Positions 8,494 to 52,574 of a stretch of 64,000 nt of DNA are shown here, in pieces. The stretch lies in assembly GCA_012646185.1 (NCBI GenBank), contig GCA_012646185.1_4706.1. The stretch is one strand, 5' to 3'. A program made the position numbers and the translations under genes. The stretch is from a phage. Numbering within the stretch: the stretch's first letter is position 1; each line of letters starts with the position of its first letter. The notes below the pieces were generated by a model. The model was not told the DNA's origin. It saw nothing but the letters and a program-made list of their open reading frames with translations, and made no database searches.

Positions 8494-8555
8494 CAAAAAA
8501 AAAAAAATAGGAAAATAGGAAAAACGGTGTTCACCCCTAAAAAGGATGAACACCG
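8494..8555 (-). terminator. intrinsic terminator for minus-strand transcript: 9-bp stem hairpin (8525-8555) followed by a T14 run (A14 on plus, 8494-8507)
   Basis: Inverted repeat cggtgttca/tgaacaccg with 13-nt loop, directly after stop of 8576-9154 gene. Confidence 0.6.
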
Positions 8556-10804: not shown

Positions 10805-10848
10805 GATGATTTCCTTCTTTATTAGGATGATTACATTTAGTCAGTTTG

Positions 10849-10883
10849 ACAGCATAAACCCTTCCTGCTTTACGCAGGAAGGG
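10849..10883 (-). terminator. GC hairpin (ccttcctgc/gcaggaagg) followed on minus strand by GTTTATGCTG box
   Basis: Inverted repeat 10859-10868/10874-10883 with 5-nt loop, between stop of 10898-11395 and start of 10547-10804. Confidence 0.45.
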
Positions 10884-33900: not shown

Positions 33901-33913
33901 GTTAACCTCAATA

Positions 33914-33954
33914 CGAACATAACCCTCCTCCTTCCCTTACGGGTTGGAGGAGGG
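33914..33954 (-). promoter_or_regulatory. extended GC hairpin (ccctcctcc/ggaggaggg with inner ccc/ggg stem) followed on minus strand by TTATGTTCG
   Basis: Inverted repeat 33923-33931/33946-33954; the following ATG is out of frame with the downstream gene. Confidence 0.4.
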
Positions 33955-34329: not shown

Positions 34330-35655
34330 TCACTTCAAAAGCTTAGACACCGCCATGCTTCGCGCCATCGCAACGTCATACGCATCCATGATCGCGTCAC
34401 CGATAGCGGTATGACGGATCAACGGAATACCCATATCTGGATACTCTTTGGTGCCTAAGATGGATACCGGTTTGTCTTGATACGCGGCAACCATCGAACG
34501 AATATCCTGAACCTGGTTATAACGGCAGATTGGTTTGAAGCCCGCTTTACGGAACCAATGCTCTAATTGCGGCCAATCTGTTTCACCACGAGCAAGATAA
34601 TAGAAGGTATCTTTACCGTAGTATTCGGTCATTTTGTCACGAATACTGTTGACGAACGCATTTACTTCGGCGATGGCTTCTTTATAACCCATTGCCTTAC
34701 AATGTTGAAAACAATAGTCGCGCGCTTCCTTTGGTGCTTTGGTTTGCCACCATTCTACTGTTGATTCACTGATACGACCACCGTCAGCGATTTGACCATG
34801 AACGTCAGGGAAGATATCTATACGCGGACCGTTAACAATGGATTCTGGATTAGCCAGATCGAAGAACACGATACCGATTTCCAGCAATACTCCATTCTTT
34901 TCCAGACTAAGGTTTTCAACATCTAAACAAAATGCGGGCTTCTCTACCGCTAACGGCTCGAACGAATGGTTGCTGGTATCCGATTCGGTTTTAAGTTCGA
35001 CGACAGCCGGATCGGTATCCGTAGGTTTCAGTTCTACTACAGCATCATCGAGTCCCGATAACGAAAAATAGTCTTCGAAGAAATCGGATATCGTCATACC
35101 ATGCAAATTGATATCGCAATCTTCCAACCATTGCTTCAACTGGTGCTCACCGGCATGAATCGCTAAACGGCACGGTCCGGAACGATCATCTAGCGCTGCA
35201 TCGATCCAGAAGAAAGCGCGTATAAGTAAGTAAGGATTATACTCCGCGATGATTTCTTGGCTAGCCGAGAAATCGTACACCATTAGTTGTATTATTCCCT
35301 TACGCGTGTTATACGGATCAACTTTCAATCGACGCACTATTTCTTCTACGAATTCCAACGCGCGCGTGTACGAGGTGGACCCACCTTGTTCATACGAACA
35401 TATACCCGTCAAAAGTTCCTTATAGGACGCATATGGAACCATAGGCGATAATTTGTACGACAGTTCAGTATTGTAATTATCGCATAATTTCTTCGGGGCG
35501 ATAGCATCCTGTATCGCTGTAATAAACGCCGGTCCATCAATATCAAACAACCATCCTTGACGCCGGTATGCAGTGTACCGTAATAACGCACCGATAACTG
35601 CCTGGGGCGGTGTATATTCTTTCCCGTTAATTTCAAACAGTAGTTTGCTCATCAT
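34330..35655 (-). CDS. protein with C-terminal DEDDh 3'-5' exonuclease domain (DnaQ/RNase T-like) and unknown N-terminal domain
   Basis: Exo I-like FCLDVENLSL, central YYLARGETDW, Exo III-like HTAIGDAIMDAYDV in the C-terminal ~190 aa. Confidence 0.6.
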   Translation of the reverse strand: MMSKLLFEINGKEYTPPQAVIGALLRYTAYRRQGWLFDIDGPAFITAIQDAIAPKKLCDNYNTELSYKLSPMVPYASYKELLTGICSYEQGGSTSYTRALEFVEEIVRRLKVDPYNTRKGIIQLMVYDFSASQEIIAEYNPYLLIRAFFWIDAALDDRSGPCRLAIHAGEHQLKQWLEDCDINLHGMTISDFFEDYFSLSGLDDAVVELKPTDTDPAVVELKTESDTSNHSFEPLAVEKPAFCLDVENLSLEKNGVLLEIGIVFFDLANPESIVNGPRIDIFPDVHGQIADGGRISESTVEWWQTKAPKEARDYCFQHCKAMGYKEAIAEVNAFVNSIRDKMTEYYGKDTFYYLARGETDWPQLEHWFRKAGFKPICRYNQVQDIRSMVAAYQDKPVSILGTKEYPDMGIPLIRHTAIGDAIMDAYDVAMARSMAVSKLLK

Positions 35656-35667
35656 AACACCTTTTCA

Positions 35668-42208: not shown

Positions 42209-42303
42209 GGATTTGTGTTGGTCCGTCTCGATGCCCATCGTATTTTATGGATTGTCGAATGACGTCATTTTAAGGGACATCCCCGGCCTCCTCCCCAGGA
42301 AAG

Positions 42304-44433
42304 GTGTGGGGAGGAGTTTTTATCATACATTCTATTAAATCGAGCGCGATTATGTTGGATAGAATCAATCGTTTAATGAACCGAATAACGGTTAAAAATC
42401 AGAGTAACAACACCGTGCATATCGGGGGTATCGATGCCTGGCGTCTTTCAGATGACATTCAGCGAATATGGGGTACCTCCCGATTTATGAAACATATGTT
42501 TCGTAATTTCTCTTCTAGTGGACTCAGTCTCCACAACTTTTACCTTCCCGATTTCGTTTATATTCTCGAAACGATCATCGAAGCAAAGAATACCCGTAGC
42601 AACAAACGCATGCTGAAACACCTTATTGAGGTACTGCTACAGGAAACCTGGCTGCAAAATACCACAATCGAGCAACCTGCAATCCTCGATAAAGCACGCA
42701 TGAACAAAATGCTAACGCTCTCTTTGTTCGATTATCAAGATGAGTTTATCGACATCTATAACCGTAACGTACCTAAATACCGACTGAAAGGATACGTGTG
42801 CGCGATGGGTGCTGGTGCGGGTAAAACAATCACCGCATTGGCTTTAAGCGCCGCAATGAACGTCGACGTATTTGTGGTCTGCTGTCCTAAGAACACCATG
42901 CGTTCAGCATGGCAATCCGATGTAAACAAAGCCATCGTTGACCCCGCAACAGAAACCGCGTTCTGGTCAGACACAATGCCACCATCACAGCTGCAGAAAA
43001 GCGATAAGTATTATTTTCTGCATTACGAATCGATGGGTTTATTAAACGATGTAATGATCAAGCATAAACGCACAGCGAAGCGCGTTCTTATTGTTGTTGA
43101 CGAAAGCCATAACTTCAACGACAAGAACAGCCAACGTTCCCAACGACTGGTTGATCTTGTACAGACAATGCGTCAAACCATGAATGCGGATGTGCACGTC
43201 TTGTTTATGTCGGGTACGCCTGTTAAACAAATGGGTTCTGAGATGATCCCCTGTTTAGGTTGTATCGACCCGATGTTCCAAGGACAGGTGGTCGATAGCT
43301 TCAAATCAATTTACGGTTTAACCAGCAGTCGCGCTAACGATATCCTCAGACATCGTCTTGGGTTCATGATGCATGTCGTACCTAAAGAGGCTTATCGTAA
43401 AACCCGTCCGGAAGTTCAGGACGTTTACGTGAAGCTCCCTAACGGTAGCGATTATACCATCTCAAGTATCCGCGACGACATGGCGGTATTTGTACGCGAT
43501 CGGGCGAAGTATTACAAGGATAACTGGGGGCATTACAGAAAGATTTTTGATGACGCCTTGGACTACTATCGTAAGACTATTCGTACCGATGGTGAACGTA
43601 AAGAGCTATCTCGATACGAATCGATTGTTACTCGTTTCCAGAAAGGTTACGATCCCGTCAGAGACAAAGAAGATGCGATGTTCTGCAATACGTTTGAAAA
43701 ACGAGCGATCATGCCGGTTCTTCCTTCCGATTTAAGGATCGCTTTCAAAGACGCCAAGAGCGTCATCAAGTACGTTGGGTTGAAAATTCAGGGTGAAGCG
43801 TTAGCGCGCGTTCTCGGTGCAGCCCGCATTCGGTGTCATGTCGACATGGTGGAGTACATCGACTTCGAAGGGTACATCAACAACGCTGAAGCCAAAGTGT
43901 TGATCTTCACGTCGTACGTTCAGGTGGTTGAGCGCGTCGACAACCTGCTTCGTGATGCGGGTTTCTTACCGGAACCCATTTACGGGAAGACCAACAAAAA
44001 CATCAACCAAATACTTGCTCGTCTACGCGATGATCCTGACAGCGGTCCCGCTATTGCAACATTTGATAGCTTAGCTGAAGGGGTTCCGATGCTGATGTGT
44101 AATGTCGGCCTTTTCCTGAACAACCCGTGGCGTTCATCCGATGAAATCCAAGCCATCAGCCGTCTCGATCGCGTAGGACAAACGCAGCCTGTTCGGATTT
44201 ATCGTTTCATGTTGGATACAGGAAGCGAGGGTAACGTTTCTACACGTAGCCACGAAATCATGGAGTTAAGTCGACAGCTTGTTGAAGAAATCACGGGTGT
44301 CAAATATGTTGTGAACAAGCAAGATGATGTTAACTTGCAAGAAACGTTGGCAATGGAAGGATACGACCAATACGTTACCGTAAACACCACGGAATACGAT
44401 ATTAAACCACGACCTGCGTTCTTGGAATGGTGA
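42304..44433 (+). CDS. superfamily 2 DNA/RNA helicase (DExH box)
   Basis: Walker A CAMGAGAGKTITAL, motif II VVDESHNF, motif III FMSGTPV, helicase C-terminal region; true start may be ATG at 42352. Confidence 0.7.
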   Translation: MWGGVFIIHSIKSSAIMLDRINRLMNRITVKNQSNNTVHIGGIDAWRLSDDIQRIWGTSRFMKHMFRNFSSSGLSLHNFYLPDFVYILETIIEAKNTRSNKRMLKHLIEVLLQETWLQNTTIEQPAILDKARMNKMLTLSLFDYQDEFIDIYNRNVPKYRLKGYVCAMGAGAGKTITALALSAAMNVDVFVVCCPKNTMRSAWQSDVNKAIVDPATETAFWSDTMPPSQLQKSDKYYFLHYESMGLLNDVMIKHKRTAKRVLIVVDESHNFNDKNSQRSQRLVDLVQTMRQTMNADVHVLFMSGTPVKQMGSEMIPCLGCIDPMFQGQVVDSFKSIYGLTSSRANDILRHRLGFMMHVVPKEAYRKTRPEVQDVYVKLPNGSDYTISSIRDDMAVFVRDRAKYYKDNWGHYRKIFDDALDYYRKTIRTDGERKELSRYESIVTRFQKGYDPVRDKEDAMFCNTFEKRAIMPVLPSDLRIAFKDAKSVIKYVGLKIQGEALARVLGAARIRCHVDMVEYIDFEGYINNAEAKVLIFTSYVQVVERVDNLLRDAGFLPEPIYGKTNKNINQILARLRDDPDSGPAIATFDSLAEGVPMLMCNVGLFLNNPWRSSDEIQAISRLDRVGQTQPVRIYRFMLDTGSEGNVSTRSHEIMELSRQLVEEITGVKYVVNKQDDVNLQETLAMEGYDQYVTVNTTEYDIKPRPAFLEW

Positions 44434-44438
44434 TTAAG

Positions 44439-44475
44439 AAGCTCTGCATGATGTCAGGCAGAGCTTTATACTTGC
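44439..44475 (+). terminator. intrinsic terminator after helicase gene: 9-bp hairpin aagctctgc/gcagagctt followed by TTATACTT
   Basis: Perfect inverted repeat 44439-44447/44458-44466 starting 6 nt after the stop codon. Confidence 0.5.
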
Positions 44476-44534: not shown

Positions 44535-45986
44535 ATGAAACTTAAACAAAGCTGGAAAGACGAACTTCTCGCGTTAGTAAATAGCAAAAACAGCTTACAG
44601 CTGACATTAGCCGACGTAAAATTTGAACTAACTGAACCGGTAAGCGAAGTGCCCGGAACGGTTGTCGTTACGATCAAACCGAACGATGATAGCCGTTACT
44701 TTAACGAGCAGTCTCTGACCTACATCCGTCGAGACATCGCTAAAAACTTCACCGGGATCCCGTTACGGGTTATCGTTAAAAATGATACCGCCGTAAGGGA
44801 TATCATCAATACGATTGCTGAACGTTACGGATTGGTATTTGACACAACCATCGACTTCCTCGAATCCGAGCTGAATAAGCAGATTACGTTCGAAGACACC
44901 GGTATTAAAGACATTACGGTTCCGGTTGCAAACACGTCTTATGTTTGGGCTGGTAATCTTCAGTTCAATATCGCTAACGATACGTTGAGCTTGATTACGA
45001 TCATCAAGCAAACCAATCTTACGAATCTGGTTTATCTGGATGGTGTTGAATCTAACACATCGGGTTCGTTACTATTAGCAACGACCTCGGTTATCGGCGA
45101 AAACGGAAATGCCGAAACAACTGAAGGTGTCCTTGACGCCGCGTACTTCCAGAATATCCTGAACGTCATGGTTCGTTATGGTGATATTACCAGCGAACAA
45201 ATGCAACAAGCAATGCAGACAATTAACGGAAGCGAAGACGCTCGTAGAGTAGAGGTGCGGTCATACGGTGACGCCGAATTACTGGTAACCACCAAGAAAG
45301 ATTGGGTTATCGGTAGCCTTAAGGGTGCTATGGTTGTTGGTCACGCTTCACCTAAACCAATCCAATACGTTCTTAAAACAAAAGGCGGCACCATTATATT
45401 GTCATTAGATGGTTGGACAAATGTCAATATCGATTGGGGTGATGGGAATAAGACGACGCAGGACTCAGGCGATAATGAATATCAGCACAATTATGCGGAC
45501 ACTACAGAACGTACGATCGTCGCTACGGGTACCCCTACCAACGTTGGAGATACAGACGTACAGCAAAGCTTCACCGGTGGTAACATCACTGAAATCGTTG
45601 ACTGGAACAACGGATTACCTAAGGCCCCATCATTACTTGCAGCGAACAGTTTAACTAAGGTTCCCGATTATATCCCGGCATACTGGACATCGTTAGAAGG
45701 TATGTTTACGCGATGCAGCGCTATTAACGACGTGAACATCACCAAATGGAACACCCGCAACGTTACTTCAATGAAGGACCTCTTCTACGGTTGCGCTACG
45801 TTCAACCAACCGATCGGTTCGTGGGATGTTTCGTCTGTTAAGAATGCAGACAATATGTTGTCTGGGTGCTTCGCGTTCAATCAGGATCTGAGTGGTTGGA
45901 CATTCCCGGCAGGCACTTCACACATCAACTACGACGCCATGACCGCCGCATGGCAGGCTGGTTATAAACCACACTTCACCGAGTAA
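44535..45986 (+). CDS. two-domain protein: shared N-terminal module plus C-terminal DUF285/BspA-like repeats; candidate fiber or adhesin
   Basis: N-terminus parallels 3261-3788 and 7605-8435; C-terminus has repeats MFTRCSAINDVNITKWNTRNVTSMKDLFYGCATFNQPIGSWDVSSVKNADNMLSGCFAFNQDLSGW. Confidence 0.65.
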   Translation: MKLKQSWKDELLALVNSKNSLQLTLADVKFELTEPVSEVPGTVVVTIKPNDDSRYFNEQSLTYIRRDIAKNFTGIPLRVIVKNDTAVRDIINTIAERYGLVFDTTIDFLESELNKQITFEDTGIKDITVPVANTSYVWAGNLQFNIANDTLSLITIIKQTNLTNLVYLDGVESNTSGSLLLATTSVIGENGNAETTEGVLDAAYFQNILNVMVRYGDITSEQMQQAMQTINGSEDARRVEVRSYGDAELLVTTKKDWVIGSLKGAMVVGHASPKPIQYVLKTKGGTIILSLDGWTNVNIDWGDGNKTTQDSGDNEYQHNYADTTERTIVATGTPTNVGDTDVQQSFTGGNITEIVDWNNGLPKAPSLLAANSLTKVPDYIPAYWTSLEGMFTRCSAINDVNITKWNTRNVTSMKDLFYGCATFNQPIGSWDVSSVKNADNMLSGCFAFNQDLSGWTFPAGTSHINYDAMTAAWQAGYKPHFTE

Positions 45987-46044
45987 AAAAAAAAAAAAAT
46001 AGATAGCATATCTTCCTCCCTACCCATAACGGGCGGGGAGGAAG
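45985..46044. terminator. bidirectional terminator at convergent junction: A15 run (45985-45999) plus extended GC hairpin (46012-46044)
   Basis: cttcctccc/gggaggaag arms with inner ccc/ggg stem; T15 in minus sense follows the hairpin after stop of 46062-46400. Confidence 0.55.
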
Positions 46045-46061
46045 GTTTATGTCAATTTAAC

Positions 46062-46400
46062 TTAGAACCAGAGTTCTTTCATGAAGTAGGCTTCCATATC
46101 GTAGATAAGCCACTCGTCAGGGATTTCTAAAGGATCGTCTTCGGTTAAGGTCAGCATGTGCAGGGCGAACGCACGCTTAATATCGTTCAGCAGTTTCTCG
46201 TCGTCGTAACCTTCGGGTAGTTTACGGTCTACCAGCTGGGTTTGTTTATAGACGTCGCGGAATGCTTCAGGGCTGTGTTTGTCCATCGGAAATTGTTCAG
46301 CAGCCTGAACCATAGAAAGCGTCCAGCTTACAACATTGTAACGCTCACCATTAATTTCACTGAACTGATCATCGATTAAACAGATTTGTTGTACGTTCAT
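46062..46400 (-). CDS. hypothetical protein (112 aa)
   Basis: ORF, last gene of the long minus-strand block. Confidence 0.5.
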   Translation of the reverse strand: MNVQQICLIDDQFSEINGERYNVVSWTLSMVQAAEQFPMDKHSPEAFRDVYKQTQLVDRKLPEGYDDEKLLNDIKRAFALHMLTLTEDDPLEIPDEWLIYDMEAYFMKELWF

Positions 46401-47358: not shown

Positions 47359-48933
47359 TTACAATTCAAAATCTTCATCGATAACACGCTGGGTAAGCAC
47401 TTTGTCGCTGAAGAACTCCACCTTGCGCTGATGGTATTTACGGTGCGCTTCGATAGAAGTACATACCAGATACCAGAACGTTGGCGTCATTCCTTCAAAC
47501 TTCCCTTTCAGCTGACGCAGTCGCCCCAACACCTGAATGTTGCCGGTTCGTGACCCCATCGCTAACGTCATGAACGTCATCACCAAGTCAGGGAGGTCGA
47601 TACCTGTACCTGCCGATTTCACCGTCGTAACGCTAATATCGTTATCCAGCAAGACCATGAAATCTTCTTCAGCAGTATAAGGACCGATCTCTAGCTCAGG
47701 AATACGCTCACTGAGATAGTGCGACAACGACTTACACATATCAACGGTTGCACAATACACCAGCATCTTCATGCCTTCCTGATACTGGTTCATGAAACCT
47801 TTGATGATAACGGTATAGATGAAGTTAAAATACGCGAGTTTGAGTTGCTTGTTCTTCATGATAGACTGTTCGAATATCGTGTGTGAATAAGCTCCGCCAA
47901 ACCCTTTGTATCTGACTTTATCTGTACTGCGTAGTCGATATGTTACCGCATTTACCGCAATATATTTCTTGTATTCGCCTTTTGCATAACGGGCTTCTTT
48001 CGGATACATCAAATACAACATCTGTTCGATAAACGGATCATCGGACACCGCCGTTGCCGACAGATAAATGATTTCCGGAATACTGGCGTAACACTTGACC
48101 TTAAACAAGAAATGCAATGCTTCGTGACACTCGTCATGAATCAGCAAACCTATGCCGGTCTTTTCCCAAAACTCAGCGGGATGAAAGGCATATGGCGCAA
48201 CGCAGTTATTCTTCTCGTAGTCCGCAATATAACGTTGGAACATGTTCAAGGAGAACAATGCGATTTTGAAGTCGAGCTCACCTTGTTCAACCAAGGTTTG
48301 AAACTCCAGCATGCTGTAACGAGGAATGTCGGGATGTGGTGGATCCTCCTTAGCGTTCCCGCGTATCTCAATAACGTCCCCTGGTTCCATCCCGAAGAAG
48401 TTCAGCAGTGAGCTTCGCCAACCTGGCATGTATCTCGGCGACAGAATGATACCCGTCCGTACACCACGTCGGAAGGTAATCTCCTGCGACATGGCCGTTT
48501 TTCCTGACCCCGTTTGAGCGGTGTTTAGGCTCATTCTGAAGGGGGTATCCTTACCCCCGTCCATGTACTCCAACCATTCTTGCTGATCTTGACGCCATGG
48601 AAACTTCCATTTCTTTACGAACTCCACTTCTTTACCTGGTACCGGATCGTGATAGACGATTTCCAACCACTCTTTTCGTATCCCTCGGGAAAAGATAAAA
48701 TCCAAAAACGATTTCAACTGTTCACGGAGTAAGTATACCTCGCTATAATCGCTTCTCGCCGCGGCATACGTGTTTATGGTATCGGTAACCATTCTCCGTG
48801 TACGAGGGTCACGCCGTTTCCTCAGATGCAAACAACGGTCTCGAAGGTAATGGCCTATCAAATGGGCAAATCGAAGTCCGTATCCGCTCAGCCTCATGCC
48901 ATGCGAGAAGACGTCGATACGAGCTAACTTCAT
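47359..48933 (-). CDS. superfamily 2 helicase (DExH box)
   Basis: Walker A TAQTGSGKTAMS, motif II LLIHDECHE, SAT motif YLSATAV, motif VI QVLGRLRQ. Confidence 0.65.
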   Translation of the reverse strand: MKLARIDVFSHGMRLSGYGLRFAHLIGHYLRDRCLHLRKRRDPRTRRMVTDTINTYAAARSDYSEVYLLREQLKSFLDFIFSRGIRKEWLEIVYHDPVPGKEVEFVKKWKFPWRQDQQEWLEYMDGGKDTPFRMSLNTAQTGSGKTAMSQEITFRRGVRTGIILSPRYMPGWRSSLLNFFGMEPGDVIEIRGNAKEDPPHPDIPRYSMLEFQTLVEQGELDFKIALFSLNMFQRYIADYEKNNCVAPYAFHPAEFWEKTGIGLLIHDECHEALHFLFKVKCYASIPEIIYLSATAVSDDPFIEQMLYLMYPKEARYAKGEYKKYIAVNAVTYRLRSTDKVRYKGFGGAYSHTIFEQSIMKNKQLKLAYFNFIYTVIIKGFMNQYQEGMKMLVYCATVDMCKSLSHYLSERIPELEIGPYTAEEDFMVLLDNDISVTTVKSAGTGIDLPDLVMTFMTLAMGSRTGNIQVLGRLRQLKGKFEGMTPTFWYLVCTSIEAHRKYHQRKVEFFSDKVLTQRVIDEDFEL

Positions 48934-52530: not shown

Positions 52531-52574
52531 TATCAGCATAAACATCCTCCTCCCACCACATGGGCAGGAGGAGG
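52531..52574 (-). promoter_or_regulatory. GC hairpin (cctcctcc/ggaggagg) followed on minus strand by TTTATGCTGAT box
   Basis: Inverted repeat 52546-52553/52567-52574; box about 80 nt upstream of the SD-supported start at 52467. Confidence 0.4.

Follow-up and report, generated by a model that had tools for sequence, protein, structure and literature searches.

Genes and elements at the convergent junction

The junction described here lies in a 64,000-nucleotide stretch of phage DNA (the window; contig GCA_012646185.1_4706.1) that is ~97% identical to Escherichia phage Goslar. Given the 96.8% DNA identity to Goslar across 2 kb, the source genome can be classed from its sequence as a chimallivirus, one of the jumbo phages that build a nucleus and encode multisubunit RNA polymerases of their own; a shell protein, PhuZ and subunits of RNA polymerase are all annotated in the Goslar record. 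A preliminary description of the sequence had placed a plus-strand island, made up of a helicase and a DUF285 protein, opposite a minus-strand RNA polymerase block. Both identities were borne out by Pfam, and the convergent arrangement by the ORF list and the Goslar annotation (Table 1). The helicase gene is the first of the island, and its orthologues define the junction that we followed in relatives. Besides gp162 and gp163, the minus-strand block encodes a helicase and an RNA polymerase subunit, the latter annotated "RNA polymerase beta subunit" in Goslar. The gp162 homologue, whose stop lies 17 nt from the hairpin described below, has no family in Pfam. An exact-protein look-up returned no match for gp094, and an insertion was seen in the gp164 gene among the relatives' loci. 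Rfam searches of 45700–46300 gave only two sub-threshold matches (E about 0.3), and a search for tRNA and tmRNA found none.

Table 1. Features of the junction and related elements elsewhere in the window.
Feature	Positions	Strand	Basis or detail
Second long run, A13 on plus strand / T13 in minus sense, between two minus genes	8495..8507	-	homopolymer list
Ordinary predicted minus-sense terminator hairpin CGGTGTTCATCC…GGGGTGAACACCG	8525..8555	-	then TTTTT, CCTATTTTCCTA, T13
Family copy CCCTTCCTGC-GTAAA-GCAGGAAGGG + TTTATGCTGT	10859..10883	-	one mismatch to phiKZ 3' half motif
Family copy CCCTCCTCC-AACCCGTAAGGGAA-GGAGGAGGG + TTATG	33923..33954	-	arm scan
Family-like hairpin + TTTTTATC	42288..42316	+	arm scan; annotated terminator in Goslar
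SNF2/ResIII helicase gene, Goslar gp160 homologue	42352..44433	+	Pfam ResIII, SNF2-rel_dom, Helicase_C; Goslar annotation
DUF7941 + DUF285 (BspA-like LRR) gene, Goslar gp161 homologue	44535..45986	+	ORF list, Pfam
Homopolymer, A15 on plus strand / T15 in minus sense	45985..45999	-	letters; homopolymer list
12-nt spacer TAGATAGCATAT	46000..46011	-	minus-sense tail ATATGCTATCTA
Predicted terminator hairpin	46012..46044	both	outer stem CTTCCTCCC / GGGAGGAAG, TA/CG internal loop, inner stem CCC-ATAAC-GGG
Plus-sense tail GTTTATG, family tail (Y)TTATG	46045..46051	+	Goslar tail consensus, phiKZ motif
Last gene of minus-strand block, Goslar gp162 homologue, 112 aa	46062..46400	-	ORF list, Goslar annotation
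Family copy, TATG tails on both strands (minus ATGTTTATG, plus CGTAATATGC)	52546..52574	-	arm scan

Read on the plus strand, positions 45984–46064 consist of TAA-A13 (a T followed by 15 A), TAGATAGCATAT, CTTCCTCCC, TA, CCC, ATAAC, GGG, CG, GGGAGGAAG, GTTTATG, TCAATTTAAC and TTA. The 15 adenines noted earlier as following the stop codon are therefore all present, but the first two belong to the stop itself (45984–45986), leaving TAA and 13 A. This fusion of stop and run occurs in 10/10 Goslar-like genomes. Lengthening of the DUF285 protein by slippage or read-through was rejected, as the T of TAA precedes the run, and elsewhere the run lies 3–8 nt, once ~52 nt, past the stop. The spacer carries the TATGC half of a palindromic GCATA…TATGC frame, and the same frame is found in distant relatives.

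The extended hairpin with a nested inner stem reported previously folds on both strands. As plus RNA it reaches −26.0 kcal/mol with 12+3 bp (z = −5.1) and as minus RNA −25.0 kcal/mol with 9+4 bp (z = −5.5), and 0/200 shuffles folded as well. Fifteen nucleotides, including the nested CCC/GGG stem, separate the outer arms. The hairpin is unchanged in 9/10 Goslar-like genomes and carries one substitution in the remaining one (L014). Both converging stops (45986 and 46062) thus flank a single hairpin that folds on either strand, as expected of a bidirectional terminator. Two smaller candidates in the same stretch were discarded. An AT hairpin between run and stem (AGATA-GCA-TATCT, 46001–46013) is not conserved; in Goslar and eight other genomes it is disrupted (TAGTTAG). 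A mini-ORF (ATG TCA ATT TAA, 46051–46062) stands behind the Shine-Dalgarno-like GGAGGAAG; other family copies have unrelated ORFs or none at this place, and the GA arm that resembles a Shine-Dalgarno sequence is accounted for by the terminator family.

A hairpin of the phiKZ terminator family

Mapping of phiKZ transcript ends by ONT-cappable-seq yielded the terminator motif BCCYCCCCHWWDGGGRRGGBYTTATKYYGT at 61 sites (PMC10914365), and a conserved intrinsic terminator motif is described for both phiKZ and 201phi2-1 (Putzeys et al., 2024, PMC10914365; Poppeliers et al., 2024, PMC11512511). By its sequence, the hairpin at 46012–46044 is a member of this phiKZ-type, sequence-conserved chimallivirus family. 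Like the phiKZ elements, which come from the same virus family, it has a pyrimidine/C-rich 5′ arm, a purine/G-rich 3′ arm and a (Y)TTATG(C) tail directly after the stem, and it is placed just past stop codons. It would also resemble them in serving both directions between convergent genes, six bidirectional terminator regions having been mapped in phiKZ (PMC10914365; PMC11512511). The two differ in architecture, with a 33-nt two-tier hairpin here (outer stem 9–12 bp, inner stem 3–4 bp) and a 7-bp stem with a 4-nt loop (HWWD) in phiKZ; the literal IUPAC pattern is missed here by more than three positions, and the 10–15 nt homopolymer has no part in the published motif. The 3′ half of the motif, GGGRRGGBYTTATKYYGT, occurs at eight window sites with ≤3 mismatches against 2.45 expected, three of them with a single mismatch (10849, 32317 and 40361). 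Positions 46036–46055 are not among these ≤3-mismatch sites, having four mismatches by our reading.

The tail is informative as to direction. In plus sense, G-TTTATG-TCAA contains the TTTATG of YTTATK(YYGT) without YYGT, and in minus sense there is only ATATGC. The GTTTATG that had been recorded simply as following the hairpin thus proves to be the conserved YTTATK family tail (PMC10914365), and so the plus direction, which would end the helicase/DUF285 island, is the family-consensus orientation. The element itself is bidirectional.

Direct scans for CT-rich and GA-rich arms were used to locate family copies, an MAFFT alignment of eight copies being ragged owing to variable loops. Besides the junction hairpin, four other copies were found in the window (Table 1), one of which (42288..42316) sits in the divergent region just upstream of the helicase gene. 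In Goslar the family numbers at least 34 copies, in which one arm is rich in CT, the other in GA, and the stem is followed by (T)TTATGC (consensus (T)TTATGC(Y)G); the two-tier form is the commonest (e.g., …AACCCGTAAGGGAA…). An inverted-repeat hairpin is present at 16/16 listed non-overlapping convergent junctions of Goslar, nearly all of the CT/GA family and mostly framed CATAA…TATG, and at the wrap-around gp187/gp001 junction as well.

When the element is judged by bacterial standards, the picture is different. The canonical rule for intrinsic terminators calls for ≥5 U in 8, starting 0–2 nt after a GC-rich stem with a 3–8 nt loop. A consensus terminator scan made no call at 46012–46044 on either strand, and the hairpin does not conform to the rule. 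The plus tail GUUUAUGU reaches 5 U in 8, but on this strand the loop is too long. In minus sense, the 12 nt of ATATGCTATCTA separate the stem from T15, which starts at +13, and no more than 3 U in 8 are found in the proximal tail AUAUGCUA. The stem is flanked by A15 at a distance of 12 nt on its 5′ side and by no more than UUUAU on its 3′ side. The minus-sense reading of the preliminary description, a hairpin plus T15 acting as a strong intrinsic terminator, holds insofar as a terminator module appears to mark the convergence point and the T sense fits the other runs of the genome; the canonical hairpin-and-T geometry that it implied does not, because T15 starts 13 nt after the stem.

Long runs beside hairpins in Goslar and its relatives

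Only two homopolymers of ≥8 nt occur in the window, both of A on the plus strand and each followed by a hairpin. About 3e-4 runs of ≥15 A/T are expected by chance, and the run at 45985–45999 is not due to chance. Nor, leaving aside its exact length of 15, which comes from one assembly, is it an assembly artefact, since the run itself is present in ten independent assemblies. Its length varies between isolates, drifting from T10 to T15 in ten Goslar-like genomes (10, 10, 11, 11, 11, 11, 11, 12, 12 and 15). The second run, given earlier as A14, is A13. It does follow a terminator-like element, an ordinary minus-sense hairpin with T5 (−22.7 kcal/mol, z = −7.2; one compensatory pair in L019), within the region 8494–8555 named at the outset, although it marks no convergence point, lying between two minus genes. 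The stretch 8495–8524 is hypervariable between genomes.

In Goslar, the counts of A runs fall to one at length 7 and then return at lengths 8–17, and no T run on the plus strand is longer than 8. Runs of ≥9 occur at only six loci, all of them A on the plus strand and hence T when read along the gene-dense strand; the ~20 convergent junctions hold five of the loci and the ~227 other junctions one (Fisher p = 1.2e-5). Since ~11/17 non-overlapping convergent junctions have no run of ≥9, the run is not required for convergence. No long run stands alone without a hairpin in Goslar, and a T run serving the plus direction was never seen. We considered whether a distal run makes up for a weak minus-sense tail next to the stem. 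Goslar agrees with this idea, but it was dropped as a general rule because distant relatives such as L122 combine a consensus TTTATGCC tail with T10. The Goslar record is split inside one of these loci, and convergent-junction runs would thus be homopolymer hot spots for assembly breaks.

The relatives' loci were compared by pairwise BLAST. Downstream of helicase orthologues with 30–39% amino acid identity, A≥8 lies at the stop or only a few nt away in 14/25 loci where the genes converge and in 0/36 where they are co-directional (p = 2e-7), arrangements being assigned by an ORF heuristic and Fisher tests overstating independence among phylogenetically related phages. No comparable T run was found on the same strand at these loci. 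Among convergent loci that follow the tail-sheath/gp217 genes, 10/27 have A≥8 and ~19/27 have A≥6, and the GenBank phages SA002 and FBKp24 have the same module. Stems at orthologous junctions differ wholly in sequence, yet pair perfectly (−21 to −34 kcal/mol), and the distance from run to stem ranges from 0 to ~20 nt. In L184, L197 and L177, no spacer parts the A run from the stem, and a T tract comes after the stem, suggesting that chimallivirus modules form a continuum to textbook bidirectional terminators. Taken across the phage family, a long T run beside a hairpin appears to be kept only where genes converge, and it has apparently not been described before.

These distributions bear on whether the run has any function. 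A neutral, slippage-prone homopolymer, or a scar left by recombination at the border of a variable gene cassette, would explain the length polymorphism of 10–15, the hypervariability of 8495–8524 and the state of L016, which loses its similarity to the window precisely where the run lies and has ~900 bp of the DUF285 gene replaced. An unselected A10–15 would nevertheless decay, whereas the run persists at orthologous junctions in phages of only 30–40% protein identity, with strict strand bias and dependence on the convergent arrangement; we find a functionless run hardly credible.

It is also conceivable that the run acts in the plus strand as an oligo(A) tract in the 3′ UTR of certain mRNAs, those of the helicase/DUF285, DnaB-like helicase and tail sheath operons being the candidates, where it could serve stability, export from the phage nucleus or binding of Hfq-like factors. 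The run touches or nearly touches the plus stop, not only in the Goslar-like genomes but also in many distant relatives, and lies strictly on one side of the hairpin. Proximity to the stop is, however, expected anyway in intergenic regions of 32–81 nt. The run is missing from all co-directional loci (0/36), although the direction of the next gene should make no difference to an element in the 3′ UTR of the helicase mRNA. Moreover, the runs at 8495–8507 and at Goslar 86147 have no plus gene and are T runs behind minus-sense terminators. Because they follow a minus-sense hairpin with T5 and a canonical minus-sense hairpin with T8, respectively, with no plus gene nearby, these two make sense only in the T-run direction. 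An oligo(A) role is thus very unlikely, and the T-run (minus) sense best explains the long runs across the genome.

A third possibility is that minus-sense transcripts start here, with the T run acting as the AT-rich upstream element of a promoter or the adjacent TATG as a late promoter. The tail at 46045..46051 does hold the TATG core of the late promoters of the phiKZ non-virion polymerase, in which G is +1 (PMC4666361), middle promoters carry an AT-rich element near −24, and the run at 8495–8507 precedes the next minus gene by ~60 nt, in which TATG motifs occur. At 5/6 Goslar loci and all helicase junctions, though, the transcript would only be antisense to the plus gene; at 45985–45999 the run is downstream of TATG rather than upstream, and the minus-sense TATG reads ATGTG in L013–L015. 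A census of 10-mers in Goslar for an early-promoter motif returned no repeated AT-rich word beyond the runs and the terminator hairpin words. A promoter at this site is highly improbable.

A putative asymmetric bidirectional terminator

The module is probably a bidirectional intrinsic terminator of asymmetric build, placed to end both of the transcription units that converge on it, the oligo-T run being the U-tract or backstop for the opposing transcription. Its anatomy, its place in the family, its conservation and its bias towards one strand and towards convergent junctions can be read from the sequences, whereas we infer that termination occurs, where it falls and which phage polymerase is affected. 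One near-palindromic hairpin would form in RNA from either strand. In plus-sense RNA from the helicase/DUF285 island, it would be followed at once by GUUUAUG, and plus transcripts should end here because hairpin+YTTATK is the conserved terminator of nucleus-forming jumbo phages. In minus-sense RNA, the same hairpin would be followed by the weaker tail AUAUGC and, after 12 nt in all, by U15. This U run may represent the U-tract of the opposing direction, shifted off the stem by the GCATA/TATGC frame. An all-rU:dA hybrid could then pause or destabilize any polymerase that passes the hairpin and release it just before it enters the plus gene in antisense. Several points count against this reading. 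For bacterial RNA polymerase, a tract at +13 nt is too far from the stem for hairpin-assisted release. Another is the asymmetry of the element, whose plus direction has no T run. The literature searched also yielded no transcript 3′ ends for Goslar-like phages.

Bacterial bidirectional intrinsic terminators (A-tract/hairpin/U-tract) offer a close parallel to the proposed asymmetric terminator. In these, too, one hairpin is common to two stop codons and an A tract on one side is the U-tract for the opposite strand, an arrangement found exactly in L184 and L197. Here, however, the A run is 12 nt off the stem and 15 long, compared to about 4–8, and the two directions differ in their tails (TTTATG vs. 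oligo-T).

Other multisubunit polymerases stop without a hairpin. RNA polymerase III and archaeal RNA polymerase terminate on oligo(dT) alone, and vaccinia virus has the early signal U5NU. The oligo-T run might likewise be the minus-sense terminator by itself, with the hairpin mainly for the plus direction. Such a mechanism would accommodate a run that begins 13 nt from the stem, past the reach of the hairpin, and whose distance from it varies among relatives; as in those systems, a non-template T run would stop a non-bacterial multisubunit polymerase at a position independent of the adjacent stem. The polymerases of these phages are multisubunit enzymes of high divergence (PMC7598289), and the run appears to be selected specifically where read-through is antisense. 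In contrast to oligo(dT) terminators, a hairpin is always nearby here, together with the TATGC frame, and the runs of several relatives abut the stem as in ordinary intrinsic terminators; the vaccinia signal differs further in acting through a factor, 20–50 nt downstream. We therefore judge a hairpin-free stop rather unlikely.

A more speculative and, in our estimation, unlikely proposal is that two termination codes share one hairpin, namely the TATG(C) tail and the long oligo-T, with the tract used only where read-through would cause antisense transcription or head-on collisions. The promoter-like TATG(C) tail could pause the non-virion polymerase, which recognizes TATG at late promoters, and the oligo-T could be a generic hairpin-independent full stop for the opposing flux, in the style of RNA polymerase III or archaea. 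If so, the run would be a directional insulator and the first recognizable termination signal specific to these non-canonical polymerases.

To our knowledge, hardly any work has addressed how the two non-canonical RNA polymerases of nucleus-forming jumbo phages terminate, the only motif known being that from transcript-end mapping in phiKZ and 201phi2-1. Taken alone, the site is ordinary gene punctuation. With it, the phiKZ terminator motif now extends to an E. coli phage, and at convergent junctions the motif seems to be used in both directions, accompanied by an oligo-T tract that is held on one side across very distant members of the family, only with converging genes. In practice, these modules may improve the annotation of transcription units in jumbo phages and could provide strong directional insulators for phage engineering.

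Module anatomy and source genome

The region studied shares 96.8% identity with the nucleus-forming jumbo phage vB_EcoM_Goslar (an Escherichia phage of 237 kb), in which gp160 and gp161 correspond to the plus genes and gp162-gp165 to the minus block; gp165 is annotated in the Goslar record as RNA polymerase beta subunit. Genome-wide statistics were computed on the complete Goslar record. The preliminary description had placed an A15 run and a nested hairpin at the convergence point of a helicase/DUF285 plus island and a minus block. Sequence, ORFs and folding of both strands bore this out with small corrections, and Pfam agreed on the island (an SNF2/ResIII helicase and a DUF7941+DUF285 protein).

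Features of the convergence point and of other terminator sites in the window
Feature	Position	Strand	Remarks
Whole module	45984-46064	written in plus sense	TAA-A13 / TAGATAGCATAT / CTTCCTCCC-TA-CCC-ATAAC-GGG-CG-GGGAGGAAG / GTTTATG / TCAATTTAAC / TTA
Plus ORF (gp161 homologue)	44535..45986	+	TAA stop, whose two A open the A15 run
A15 homopolymer	45985-45999	A on plus, T in minus sense	window sequence
Minus ORF	46062..46400	-	terminates 17 nt past hairpin
Second homopolymer, A13	8495-8507	T in minus sense	between two minus genes
Family-type hairpin	42288-42316	+	CTCCTCCCC…GGGGAGGAG then TTTTTATC; between divergent gp159 (-) and helicase gene (+)
Terminator between helicase and DUF285 genes	44441-44475		AAGCTCTGC…GCAGAGCTT; tail TTATAC in window

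Either strand gives an equally good fold of the hairpin: plus RNA reaches -26.0 kcal/mol (12+3 bp) and minus RNA -25.0 kcal/mol (9+4 bp). The z-score lies near -5, and 200 shuffles yielded no structure of equal stability. Only two homopolymers of at least 8 nt occur in the window, the A15 run and the A13 run at 8495-8507; the chance expectation for runs of at least 15 is about 3e-4. In minus sense, the hairpin is followed by 12 nt (ATATGCTATCTA) and then by T15, which therefore does not adjoin the stem. The claim of a strong intrinsic terminator made of hairpin and T15 thus holds for a terminator at the convergence point, the T-run sense probably being functional, and fails for canonical geometry: besides the intervening 12 nt, a standard hairpin plus T-tract scan called no terminator at the module on either strand.

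Other differences from Goslar were seen. About 340 bp (gp108 region; window 15657/15704) and about 710 bp (gp120; window 21444) are absent from the window, a 700-bp stretch around the exoribonuclease gene start (34949-35664) is unalignable, and the tail-fibre segment (1-2000) is divergent and internally repetitive (68-89% identity). In five related loci (L009, L011, L012, L014 and L016), the gp164 helicase gene contains about 680 bp of inserted in-frame sequence (L009:216-900); the site corresponds to about window 48500 within the gene at 47359..48933 (-), and the window and Goslar lack the insertion. The insertion directly follows the GSGK P-loop and ends …THN|T; by motif reading only it looks like a mini-intein, and Pfam returned no match to it. 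The linear Goslar record (NC_048170) repeats 56 bp at both ends (1-56 and 237252-237307), and its break falls within an A16/17 run that two hairpins flank at the convergent junction of gp187 and gp001; these record ends are an assembly artefact and not physical termini.

The hairpin as a phiKZ-type terminator

A scan for hairpins with a pyrimidine 5′ arm and a purine 3′ arm (the CT/GA family) found five copies in the window (10859, 33923, 42288, 46012 and 52546) and 34 in Goslar. Many share the two-tier form …CCTCC-AACCC-GTAA-GGGAA-GGAGG…, and their downstream tails, aligned at the stem end, read (T)TTATGC(Y)G. In phiKZ, 61 experimentally mapped terminators yielded the motif 5′-BCCYCCCCHWWDGGGRRGGBYTTATKYYGT-3′ (PMC10914365), and 201phi2-1 has a similar one (PMC11512511). 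Judged by sequence, the Goslar/window family is the phiKZ terminator motif; its 3′ half, with at most three mismatches, matches 8 window sites vs. 2.45 expected, three of them with a single mismatch. Although the copy at 46012 diverges from the motif by four mismatches and a longer, nested loop, it has the right arms and, in plus sense, the TTTATG tail. The GTTTATG noted earlier after the hairpin is indeed present and is this conserved family tail. The hairpin at 46012-46044 is thus a new member of an already known chimallivirus terminator family.

TATG, which forms the core of late promoters used by the non-virion polymerase of phiKZ (G being +1; PMC4666361), is part of this copy's tail (46046-46051). 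It also lies within TTATG tails at 10846-10866, 33910-33930 and 52532-52546 and in Goslar copies, and the hairpin at 52546 is directly followed by ATGTTTATG and an in-frame ORF start. At co-directional junctions, terminator and restart signal may overlap in the TTATG tail. The inner loop of the two-tier hairpin is strand-biased in Goslar: CCCGTAAGGG, which yields a GNRA-type GUAA loop, occurs eight times on the plus strand vs. once on the minus strand, despite most genes lying on the latter.

The hairpin at 42288-42316 precedes the helicase start by about 35 nt, a position that suggests a 5′-UTR terminator or attenuator; in phiKZ, 42 mapped 3′ ends fall within 5′UTRs (PMC10914365). The tail of the terminator at 44441-44475 reads TTCATGCTGT in Goslar and TTTATGCTGC in the related locus L081, and the arms differ too, so that this internal terminator may be weakened in the present isolate.

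Distribution of the long run

Goslar A-run counts drop geometrically to one at length 7 and reappear at lengths 8, 9, 9, 10, 11, 11, 12 and 16/17; no T run on the plus strand exceeds 8. In all six loci with runs of at least 9, the run is A on the plus strand and reads as T along the minus strand, where genes are dense. Convergent junctions account for five (gp036/037, gp043/044, gp161/162, gp217/216 and gp187/001), and the sixth, the counterpart of the window 8495 site, lies between two minus genes (Fisher p = 1.2e-5 for about 20 convergent vs. 227 other junctions). The long run is selected.

Homopolymer length, whose variation between isolates had been proposed as a check, does vary: the run is kept in all ten Goslar-like genomes that were drawn from GenBank, IMG/VR and metagenomes (15, 12, 12, 11, 11, 11, 11, 11, 10 and 10 nt), always fused to the TAA stop, and the hairpin is identical save one substitution. 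In one of the related loci (L016:3412-4315 vs. window 45085-45989), similarity ends exactly at the A run and restarts some 900 bp upstream: the DUF285 gene has had its 3′ portion replaced, and the terminator module marks the boundary. L011 and L012 also diverge sharply from the window, on the side of the run that faces the gene.

A search of IMG/VR with the pattern A10-N8-16-CCTCC-N8-22-GGAGG, which itself selects for the run, returned 49 loci. Twenty encode distant relatives of Goslar proteins (about 22-43% amino acid identity, Goslar-like contigs excepted), with the run at Goslar-matching junctions: after the tail sheath/gp217 pair, the DnaB-like helicase, the SNF2 helicase and gp188/187. 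Because of this selection, the helicase and gp217 junctions were sampled irrespective of the run. In 79 IMG/VR loci 3′ of helicase orthologues (alignment A5), A runs of at least eight at the stop, or at most a few bases from it, were found in 14 of 25 convergent vs. 0 of 36 co-directional loci (p = 2e-7; as in the gp217 sample below, the loci are mutually related, duplicates were dropped only if identical and orientation was taken from an ORF heuristic); the longest same-strand T run was at most 3 in all except one locus. Among 12 GenBank phages, the convergent SA002 and FBKp24 carry A10 and A9, respectively, and Aphrodite1 a degenerate A-rich tract; no A run was seen in RisingSun or at any of eight co-directional helicase junctions. 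At the gp217 junction, 27 of 36 loci are convergent, with A runs of at least 8 in 10 and of at least 6 in about 19 of the 27. Stems at the orthologous junction are wholly different in sequence yet perfectly paired, with energies of -21 to -34 kcal/mol, and sit in a GCATA…TATGC(CGT) frame.

Strand served and candidate mechanisms

Inverted-repeat hairpins occur in all 16 non-overlapping Goslar convergent junctions listed and at the wrap-around gp187/gp001; nearly all belong to the CT/GA family, gp192/191 having a different one. Most have the palindromic frame CATAA…hairpin…(A/T)TATG, which lets either strand read hairpin and TATG. Regions of bidirectional termination have also been mapped between convergent phiKZ genes (PMC10914365). 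On these grounds, bidirectional is the best label for the element at 46012-46044, whose plus side bears the family-consensus tail. The long run is absent from about 11 of 17 non-overlapping Goslar convergent junctions, where the minus tail is the consensus TTATG. That the run compensates for a non-consensus minus tail fits Goslar but fails in distant relatives, and we do not keep it as a general rule.

The second run had been reported as A14 near 8494-8555; it does lie beside a terminator, as A13. It comes after a minus-sense hairpin and TTTTT, with no plus gene nearby. Between hairpin and run, 8495-8524 is hypervariable through small duplications in the window, Goslar and L017-L019, related loci (window TATTTTCC-TA-T13; Goslar TA-T10-CG-T11; a longer form, T…CG…T, in L018; T4-G-T12 in L019), about 120 nt on each side being nearly invariant; the adjacent hairpin has one compensatory pair in L019.

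A canonical minus-sense hairpin with T8 directly after it occurs at Goslar 86147, and in three related loci (L184, L197 and L177) textbook bidirectional terminators have the A run abutting the stem and a T tract on the other side; this form grades into that of Goslar, where the GCATA frame parts the run from the stem. These forms and the second run favor the T-run sense, which is probably the functional one, and a role in the plus mRNA would hardly explain why the run is absent from all 36 co-directional helicase loci. We read the run as a U-tract or backstop for opposing, minus-sense transcription; with just 32-81 nt between the genes, it lies flush with the stop of the plus gene. No transcriptome of Goslar came up in the literature searched.

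With bacterial polymerase, the U tract has to begin no more than about two bases from the stem; here it begins at +13. Either of two mechanisms might apply. The TATGC frame could lengthen the effective stem ahead of the U tract, and RNAfold does pair CAUA with UAUG at the module, although this still leaves 7 nt ahead of the run. Alternatively, the run could act alone via an all-rU:dA hybrid, by analogy with Pol III or archaeal termination. The hairpin, for its part, is of a known chimallivirus terminator type that also closes the plus island, and the oligo-T tract, conserved and dependent on gene arrangement, is a variant feature for which our limited literature search turned up no description.
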